In this document: in pieces, positions 53,829 through 54,074 of the stretch
Layout of the letters: each line of letters opens with the position of its first letter
Numbering within the stretch: the first letter of the stretch is position 1
Origin: Clostridia bacterium
GTDB taxonomy: Bacteria; Bacillota; Clostridia; TANB77; CAG-508
DNA: 64,000 bases
Direction of reading: 5' to 3'
NCBI GenBank assembly: GCA_022792135.1
Contig: JAAWAM010000029.1
Span: 117,448 to 181,447 of the forward strand
Translations under genes and position numbers: made by a program
Notes under the pieces: generated by a model
What the model was told of the DNA's origin: nothing
What the model saw: the letters and a program-made list of their open reading frames with translations, nothing else
Databases searched by the model: none

Positions 53829-54074
53829 ATGGAAAATATTTTAGTAGCCACATTAAATTGTATTGGGCTGATTATAGGACTTACTTTTTTAGGATTAGGA
53901 ATTGGAATTGGAATTTTAGGTTCAAAAGTAGCAGAAGCAGTAGGAAGAAACCCAGAAACAAAGAGCGATATTGTACATGCTATTATGACAATATTAATTA
54001 TACTTGCTATCTTTTTATTACTACTATTTGCCTTTATTTTCTTACTATTATTTTATAATCCATTAACCATATAG
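53829..54074 (+). CDS. F-type ATPase c-subunit-like hairpin protein lacking the conserved helix-2 carboxylate
   Basis: 81 aa. Helix 1 has the glycine motif [10 protein letters not shown], and the loop is AVGRNPE (compare RQPE). Helix 2 ([25 protein letters not shown]) contains no Asp or Glu. Confidence 0.7.

Follow-up and report, generated by a model that had tools for sequence, protein, structure and literature searches.

Rotary F-type ATPases are defined by the coupling of ATP to an ion gradient via the carboxylate of the c-ring. F1-like ATPases that serve surface machinery have precedents (PMC3369863, PMC11864180, PMC12994834), and for the mycoplasma F1-like X0 ATPases a mechanical role in gliding and in MIB-MIP antibody cleavage has been proposed, which is also unproven (PMC11864180, PMC12994834). 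The mycoplasma clusters of Types 2 and 3 comprise genes encoding a protein with 12 transmembrane (TM) helices, a small cytoplasmic protein, gamma, epsilon, a large protein with two C-terminal TM helices, alpha and beta, and were reported to have no homologue of the a, b or c subunits (PMC3369863; PMC12994834); a b/delta-derived stalk protein (GliD) has been proposed for these systems (PMC3369863, PMC11864180, PMC12994834). The present analysis concerns a cluster of F-type-derived genes in a 64,000-nucleotide (nt) stretch of DNA from a Clostridia bacterium (assembly GCA_022792135.1, contig JAAWAM010000029.1, positions 117,448–181,447, forward strand; hereafter, the window), and in particular an open reading frame (ORF) of this cluster encoding a small c-subunit-like proteolipid, c81. 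Judging from its sequence, c81 is a genuine homologue of the ATP synthase c subunit in which the ion-binding Glu/Asp is replaced by Ala60, and it is very probably the ion-blind c subunit of a dedicated F1-like ATPase.

The c81 ORF has a strong Shine–Dalgarno sequence, GAGGGAG, located 6–7 nt 5' of the ATG. Its product exceeded the gathering score of the PF00137 ATP-synt_C profile (33.3 bits, E-value = 5.9 × 10−8, gathering score of 24) and was below the cut-off of every NCBIfam AtpE equivalog (33 vs. 71–168 bits). A phmmer comparison with PDB sequences matched more than 30 solved c subunits, with the best match to c1/c2 of Acetobacterium woodii (4bem, E-value = 3.6 × 10−9), and the alignment to the solved hairpins was gapless. 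These profile and pairwise matches speak against the possibility, raised in the original prediction, that the ORF is unrelated to c subunits. The hairpin recognized in that prediction, with a glycine-rich helix 1 and a GRNPE loop, was found at residues 22–31 ([10 protein letters not shown]) and 39–43, respectively, and includes the GxGxGxG packing motif and the polar R-x-P loop; with both features kept, c81 would be expected to assemble into a ring.

The position of the ion site had been predicted to fall within [13 protein letters not shown] (residues 55–67), and the alignments agree. In all five printed PDB alignments, the ion-binding Glu stands opposite A60 of c81 (e.g., "AVAETTG" in A. woodii c2 and "AFMEALT" in the chloroplast subunit), and when c81 was aligned by MAFFT with some 45 canonical c subunits of the single-hairpin type, drawn from a representative library of 1.8 billion proteins, the A60 column was E or D in every canonical sequence. 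The alignment to PF00137, which had been proposed as a check, likewise placed a non-ionisable residue at the site. The helix-1 Gln of Na+-type sites is aligned with the hydrophobic I27. No acidic residue was found in c81 from after D47 to the C-terminus, as had been predicted for helix 2. Near the loop, acidic side chains are confined to E43 and D47, both of which have canonical counterparts (RQPEAxxD). A "D55" that had been named as a candidate carboxylate was misnumbered: residue 55 is Ile, and D47 is loop-proximal and common to canonical c subunits.

Thus, c81 shares with canonical AtpE (PF00137) the two-helix hairpin, the GxGxGxG motif, the R-N/Q-P-E loop and the C-terminal NP(F/L), and is encoded beside alpha, gamma, beta and epsilon, whereas the helix-2 Glu/Asp is replaced by Ala, Thr or Ser, and no subunit a with the conserved Arg is present in the cluster. 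The closest solved sequence, A. woodii c1 (4bem), is a natural F-type c subunit of which one hairpin likewise has no carboxylate (Gln for Glu). However, A. woodii c1 is a duplicated four-helix subunit that occurs as one copy among nine carboxylate-bearing c2/c3 subunits in a ring that pumps Na+, whereas the only c gene of the present cluster encodes a single hairpin without any site.

Related loci were obtained by scanning the neighbouring alpha-like protein against one genome per GTDB species, which yielded 80 loci, analysed as the stretches around the cluster rather than as whole genomes; exactly one c-like gene was present in 76 of them. A word-indexed search with c81 itself returned homologues in 1351 protein clusters, and the top 120 were at least 79% identical to the query. 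Statistics for the c-like family were calculated for 183 distinct sequences and per-position conservation for 63 distinct locus sequences. Position 60 was occupied by A in 154 sequences, by T in 19, by S in 8 and by N and M in one each, with no D or E at all, so that the loss, whose conservation had been left for checking, extends to the homologous clusters; position 27 was I, L, V or M, with T found once. Among the locus sequences, G13, G17, L21, G22, G24, G26, G28 and E36, the loop G39-R-N-P-E43, K45, F67, F69, F71, L73, N77 and P78 were invariant, whereas positions 59–61, i.e., the former ion site, were the most variable stretch of helix 2. The GxGxGxG ring-packing motif and the GRNPETK loop that contacts F1 were nearly invariant, as was helix 2 in its outer half. 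This pattern indicates that selection keeps the ring packing, the gamma/epsilon-contacting loop and the outer part of helix 2, while the ion site is no longer constrained, which rules out a pseudogene. It fits a ring that assembles and couples to gamma and epsilon without carrying H+ or Na+, and so lends support to the earlier claim that a ring without the carboxylate would be unable to translocate these ions.

The same data bear on the view that the cluster is what is left of a decaying atp operon and no longer has a function. The loss of the key Fo catalytic residue, the truncated C-terminus of the alpha-like subunit and the short epsilon-like subunit could be taken as signs of such decay, but the conservation effectively refutes it: the ORFs are intact in about 80 species, many positions are invariant, the catalytic residues are kept, the homologous protein clusters number more than a thousand, and c81 is 56–89% identical across lineages whose alpha-like subunits are themselves 56–89% identical.

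No canonical c gene was found within 10 kb on either side of the cluster in any of the 76 loci. This is of importance for another explanation suggested by A. woodii, namely, that c81 enters a hybrid ring with canonical, carboxylate-bearing c subunits encoded by another atp operon, where it would lower the ion/ATP ratio, as c1 does. Although the best PDB match of c81 is precisely A. woodii c1/c2, and the c1 hairpin carries Gln for Glu, a hybrid ring is highly improbable here, given that the cluster supplies c81 with a complete set of alpha, beta, gamma, epsilon and stalk genes, that canonical c genes are absent from the flanking regions, and that its divergent, Phe-rich helix 2 would pack poorly with canonical neighbours. 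To our knowledge, there is no other case in which the sole c subunit of an ATPase cluster is siteless in every member while the ring-packing and F1-binding features are kept.

Several other unusual c-subunit proteins were observed in the representative library. Five divergent single-hairpin c-like proteins (P0141, P0148, P0149, P0152 and P0166), with 36–49% identity to c81, also have no helix-2 carboxylate, and therefore the ion-blind family appears to be broader than the 80 loci examined; the matches to P0152 in a search of genome contigs were all canonical c subunits with the Glu, encoded in ordinary atp operons. In addition, c-subunit proteins with 3, 4, 5, 8 and 14 fused hairpins, up to 1139 amino acids (aa) in length, were found (P0150, P0153, P0157, P0161, P0162, P0164 and P0167). 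In the 3- and 4-hairpin proteins P0150, P0153 and P0164, Glu is kept in some hairpins and lost in others, and the 14-hairpin protein would constitute an entire ring as a single polypeptide. The multi-hairpin proteins (P0150, P0153, P0157 and others) were considered as a bridge from c81 to the 12-TM protein of mycoplasmas, and this was rejected because their carboxylates are kept and they represent fused c subunits of ordinary kinds, either Na+/H+-type or archaeal.

Together with c81, the cluster encodes alpha-, beta-, gamma- and epsilon-like subunits, a delta-like anchored protein (p277), a polytopic membrane protein (m177) and N-anchored surface proteins (Table 1). On the F1 side, the catalytic and torque residues of alpha and beta as well as gamma and epsilon were present. 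The alpha-like subunit keeps the N-terminal helix, which binds delta in F1Fo, the Walker A motif GDKRTGKT and the Arg finger SVSRLGG; the motifs were kept in 73–74 of 76 homologues (the Arg finger in 73 of 76). Its residues 5–433 were aligned to alpha residues 15–442 in the PDB, so that about 60 C-terminal residues of canonical alpha are absent, and it was below all NCBIfam cut-offs (431 vs. 554). The core of the beta-like subunit (residues 1 to about 455) includes [16 protein letters not shown], the Walker B motif and DELSEED, and the catalytic motifs were kept in 72 of 72 homologues (motifs GGAGVGKT, G[VAI]GERSRE and DELSEED). Its PDB matches scored 401 bits for the F1 beta subunit of F. nucleatum (6q45) and 312 bits for the G1 beta subunit of M. 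mobile (9io5), and the atpD model was passed marginally (481 against a cut-off of 463). The gamma-like subunit matched only canonical gamma chains in the PDB, and the position of the epsilon-like gene after beta was conserved in 72 loci (median length of 86 aa).

Table 1. Features of the F1-like ATPase cluster in the window, listed in their order along the DNA
Feature	Positions	Strand	Length (aa)	Description	Basis
Giant surface protein 1	46984–52302	+	1772	N-terminal TM anchor and long extracellular region	ORF; no Pfam family
p495	52323–53810	+	495	N-anchored; TM helix, juxtamembrane domain, N/Q/G-rich linker, weak fn3-like domain	ORF
c81	53829–54074	+	81	c-subunit-like proteolipid	PF00137, PDB alignments, family statistics
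p277	54123–54956	+	277	Stalk-like protein; real start probably Met14 at 54162 (homologues)	AlphaFold2 and Foldseek
Alpha-like subunit	54993–56324	+	443	F1 alpha-like	PF00006, 247 bits
Gamma-like subunit	56332–57114	+	260	F1 gamma-like	PF00231, 91.9 bits (gathering score 39.9)
Beta-like subunit	57137–59182	+	681	F1 beta-like, catalytic	PDB, NCBIfam
Epsilon-like subunit	59239–59454	+	71	Beta-sandwich part only	Weak PF02823 (E-value 0.023) and TIGR01216 (E-value 5e-4)
m177	59454–59987	+	177	Membrane protein with 4–5 TM helices	Syntenic slot of the expected membrane stator subunit
p229	59974–60663	+	229	N-anchored, extracellular; paralogue of the juxtamembrane domain of giant surface protein 1	ORF, hhalign
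Giant surface protein 2	60700–64000	+	>1100	N-terminal TM helix; runs past the window end	Open frame from 60664, Met at 60700

It should be noted that the alpha- and beta-like subunits carry extensions of variable size. The beta-like subunit of the window has a Lys/Glu-rich C-terminal extension of about 230 aa (within 58500–59182) with repeats of [13 protein letters not shown], which arises partly from a 39-bp tandem repeat present in 6.9 copies (58695–58964, 94% identity). The median length of beta-like subunits in the 80 related loci was 453 aa, and the extension is therefore lineage-specific; shorter extensions were found in loci L022 and L028. A long C-terminal extension of the alpha-like subunit (540–1090 aa in total) was found in loci L020, L021, L027, L029, L030, L031, L033, L041 and L050 (e.g., L031:9968–13240). 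Variable cytoplasmic appendages on alpha or beta thus appear to be a feature of the family.

The product of p277, for which 128 homologues were found, was modelled with AlphaFold2 (AF2) on the basis of 62 homologues (predicted local distance difference test (pLDDT) of 78, about 90 in the C-terminal domain). The model consists of a helix at residues 5–95 (TM segment and long helix), a disordered linker and a helical domain with a small beta part at residues 124–277. In the Foldseek comparison with the PDB, the top 36 matches were all F-type delta/OSCP or mycobacterial b-delta fusion proteins, the best being E. coli 6oqr_W (E-value = 7 × 10−3, with a very high match probability), whereas the family profile compared with PDB sequences gave only coiled-coil noise and no sequence-level match. 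According to the model, p277 is a probable b-delta-like stalk fusion protein, and a peripheral stalk is plausible, since p277 has a delta/OSCP-like fold and the alpha-like subunit keeps its N-terminal helix.

An ORF of 165–200 aa with 4–5 TM helices was located 3' of epsilon in nearly all loci. Its representative in the window, m177, is fast-evolving (14–33% identity to homologues). The original prediction had pointed to this protein as a possible source of compensating acidic residues; in the family alignment, no conserved Arg and no invariant acidic residue were found, the near-invariant positions being G47, Y126 and F146, and E, D or N often occupies approximately position 106. The m177 profile (43 homologues) gave no credible match and no subunit-a signal among PDB sequences and Pfam families, and the AF2 model, built with 4 homologues, was unusable (pLDDT of 45). 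No PF00119 match or a-subunit homologue was found within the cluster. Thus, both halves of the Fo ion path appear to be missing, since the c carboxylate and the a-subunit Arg are both absent from the cluster.

A further alternative is that coupling to ions persists through an unconventional site, such as H50/T54, D47, the E/D/N of m177 near position 106, or a bound lipid or water. Such a site could draw on the conservation of H50 (86%) and T54 (83%), on the frequent polar residue of m177 and on locus L030, the sole sequence with Asp at position 59. It is nonetheless very unlikely: 182 of 183 c-like sequences have no ionisable residue in the membrane core, constraint within helix 2 is lowest at the former ion site, H50, D47 and E43 lie at the cytoplasmic interface (the latter two with canonical counterparts), and m177 has no conserved Arg for gating.

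The cluster resembles the Type 3 (MSC_0618/0619, MMCAP2_0575-0581) and Type 2 (M. mobile MMOB1610-1670, G1-ATPase) systems of mycoplasmas in being an extra F-type-derived group of alpha-, beta-, gamma- and epsilon-like genes, in having membrane partners other than an ion-translocating Fo, and in its link to large surface proteins (the Gli proteins and MIB-MIP in Types 2 and 3). Meanwhile, it differs from both in the presence of a recognizable c subunit and a membrane-anchored delta-like protein, in having a 4–5-TM protein instead of the 12-TM protein, in the absence of a large protein with two C-terminal TM helices, and in gene order. Further, the alpha-like subunit has lost the C-terminus but not the N-terminal helix, which is the part missing from the Type 3 alpha, and the beta-like subunit has no N-terminal dimerisation extension, unlike that of Type 2 (MMOB1660/1670). 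Neither the Type 3 models (MSC_0618_beta, 413.5 vs. 570; MSC_0619_alpha, 314.4 vs. 520; likewise for the homologues from loci L057 and L040) nor the Type 2 models (glide_MMOB1660, 386.7 vs. 600; glide_MMOB1670, 381.5 vs. 850) were reached. The beta subunits of the family scored 459–481 on atpD and 392–415 on MSC_0618, whereas control beta subunits from two canonical operons scored 771–858 and 439–453, respectively; nearly half of the similarity to canonical beta, and little of that to the Type 3 model, has been lost, which hints at an affinity to Type 3.

The N-ATPase (TIGR03305/TIGR03324) is comparable in that it is an F-type operon distinct from the housekeeping enzyme, being a second, laterally spread operon. 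Its Fo is reportedly complete and able to translocate ions, the c subunit binding Na+, and AtpQ and AtpR are also present, whereas c81 lacks both the Glu and the helix-1 Gln. The N-ATPase models were not reached either (TIGR03324 alpha, 363.5 vs. 750.5; TIGR03305 beta, 423.6 vs. 752). A description of the cluster was not found in the literature searched; the cluster is widespread in gut Firmicutes and, as far as that literature goes, undescribed, while F1-derived non-chemiosmotic ATPases are already known as a kind.

The cluster comprises 11 co-directional genes over about 17 kb and is conserved in about 80 species-level genomes, and the gene order shown in Table 1 recurs in most of the 80 loci. 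Two rearrangements were found, with gamma located 3' of the 4–5-TM gene in one clade and p229 located 5' of the c-like gene in another. No terminator-like site was detected on the + strand between 46.4 and 61 kb, and a promoter scan gave no information, the 74 sites being close to the 78 expected in such AT-rich DNA. A syntenic homologue of giant surface protein 1 was present 5' of the ATPase genes in about 55 of the 80 loci, p495 directly 5' of the c-like gene in about 57, p229 in 56 (in some of them moved to just 5' of the c-like gene), and giant surface protein 2 was found 3' of p229 in at least 23. The N-terminal 250 aa of giant surface protein 1 were homologous to the N-termini of p495 and p229, with hhalign probabilities of 97% and 90%, respectively (the region matched by p229 being residues 76–234). 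The three proteins thus share a TM and juxtamembrane anchoring module. The fn3 match of p495 was below the threshold (E-value = 0.0044). No match indicating MIB or MIP was found for the 1772-, 495- and 229-aa proteins in Pfam or for the 495- and 229-aa proteins in NCBIfam, MIB and MIP models not having been searched explicitly.

The presence of large exported proteins beside the ATPase genes admits a different function, in which an F1-like head on a static c-ring would energise secretion, insertion or unfolding of the giants, by analogy with FliI/FliJ and the ATPases of type III secretion systems, but would not move them after their placement. The same idea was weighed for ATPases of Types 2 and 3 by Beven et al. 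(PMC3369863), and the scores of the alpha- and beta-like subunits on FliI/SctN models were substantial, although sub-threshold. An export or assembly ATPase is, however, unlikely: the subunits are far closer to F1 alpha/beta than to FliI/SctN (481 vs. about 223 bits), the gamma-like shaft, the epsilon-like subunit, the delta-like stalk protein and the c-like ring are all kept, which corresponds to a full rotary architecture and not to a translocase pore, and the ordinary N-terminal anchors of the surface proteins should be manageable by Sec/YidC.

The original prediction had described the ring, if assembled, as a passive rotor or anchor, which is supported by the loss of the site together with the kept packing and F1-binding features. 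Given that giant surface proteins and a delta-like stalk protein belong to the same conserved cluster, the "passive" ring is probably better regarded as a mechanical transmission element. In the mechanism that we propose, c81 would form a ring bound to gamma and epsilon, and the alpha3beta3 head would be held by the b-delta-like p277 and m177. ATP hydrolysis would turn or strain the ion-blind ring against the p277/m177 stator, and torque or cyclic strain would cross the membrane and reach the co-encoded surface proteins through their TM anchors and the juxtamembrane domains that they share. More speculatively, the anchor helices might lie within the ring or bind to its outer face, which is invariant and rich in Phe. 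The load would be mechanical because no ion gradient can absorb the work. That ATP is converted into mechanical work on the co-encoded surface proteins rather than into an ion gradient is, taken by itself, a tentative proposal that falls just short of an even chance. The combined reading, in which a dedicated F1-like ATPase has an ion-blind c subunit and delivers mechanical output to surface proteins, is narrowly favoured. The most far-reaching version, that this is an unrecognised ATP-driven rotary machine of uncultured gut Firmicutes with a siteless c-ring and with surface-protein TM anchors as its load (in motility, adhesion or surface remodelling), which could also represent the missing intermediate between F1Fo and the mycoplasma X0 ATPases, is somewhat doubtful. 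An intermediate position would accord with the kept c subunit and membrane-anchored b-delta protein and with the scores of the alpha- and beta-like subunits, which have fallen by about half on canonical models and hardly at all on the Type 3 models.

Several observations weigh against a mechanical machine of this kind. The surface proteins are tied to the ATPase by conserved gene neighbourhood only, and the delta-like assignment of p277 comes from Foldseek alone, with weak E-values (7 × 10−3 or worse). The ring would be smooth and hydrophobic, with no obvious cam or handle for the transfer of force, and the loss of ion transport, the rotation and the ring assembly are all deduced from sequence. 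In the CAG:302-like or "Tenericutes"-labelled clade (L052–L060, L063, L064, L068–L073 and L076; e.g., L057:8979–14190), in which c is followed by p277, alpha, beta, epsilon, m177 and then gamma, the giants are replaced by several N-anchored proteins of 200–260 aa. Finally, a high-GC variant of the cluster was found in Lachnospiraceae bacterium Zagget2 (L025; MSHD01000015.1, 9300–21293). It encodes the alpha-, gamma-, beta- and epsilon-like subunits, a membrane protein of 188 aa and three paralogues of the surface proteins, of which one includes a collagen-like repeat, but a c-like gene is absent and p277 is represented by its C-terminal, delta-like part only. Since F1-like genes and surface proteins occur there without a c-like gene, the ring may be dispensable in some lineages, or this contig of a metagenome-assembled genome (MAG) may be imperfect. 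Four Mrp/complex-I antiporter-like genes and an acyltransferase gene were located immediately upstream in the same locus; an Mrp/complex-I-like antiporter as the membrane partner was rejected, as the acyltransferase gene intervenes and the arrangement was seen in one locus only.

The hosts of the cluster are gut Firmicutes with the standard genetic code. The related loci are from gut MAGs labelled Clostridia, Bacilli, Tenericutes or Mollicutes and from Clostridium sp. CAG:302 and CAG:914; one locus (L040), from Lachnospiraceae bacterium AM93-12TA, belongs to a record without a MAG label that is listed as an isolate. The only species-named homologue was from Candidatus Merdicola faecigallinarum (Clostridia incertae sedis). 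The remainder of the window is an ordinary Firmicute chromosome (LeuRS, TopB, Mfd, GyrA, an M23 peptidase, a VanW-like protein and a nonribosomal peptide synthetase (NRPS)). As the window encodes peptidoglycan-related proteins (the M23 peptidase and the VanW-like protein), the host is probably a walled bacterium rather than a mycoplasma.

Two further features of the window should be mentioned. An HtrA/DegP-like serine protease seems to be divided between two overlapping ORFs on the + strand (44380–44955 and 44927–45526), corresponding to the Trypsin_2 N-terminal half and to the Trypsin C-terminal half with PDZ, respectively; this split may represent a frameshift, a sequencing error or a pseudogene. 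The NRPS region (38192–42442 on the − strand and 42879–44315 on the + strand) encodes a single-module enzyme with C-A-T and a terminal thioester reductase (aureusimine/MxcG-like architecture). It adjoins a stand-alone AMP-binding enzyme and a histidine kinase, and is unusual cargo for an apparent small-genome gut Firmicute.

Gut metagenomes of humans and animals contain the family in abundance, and it keeps enough of Fo to be interpretable. It is thus tractable for two questions, namely, how a rotary ATPase may be turned to the production of mechanical output across a membrane, and how the motors of mycoplasmas originated. For the gut bacteria with reduced genomes that carry the cluster, automatic annotation of these genes as "ATP synthase", prompted by a beta-like subunit that passes atpD, would mislead metabolic reconstruction.

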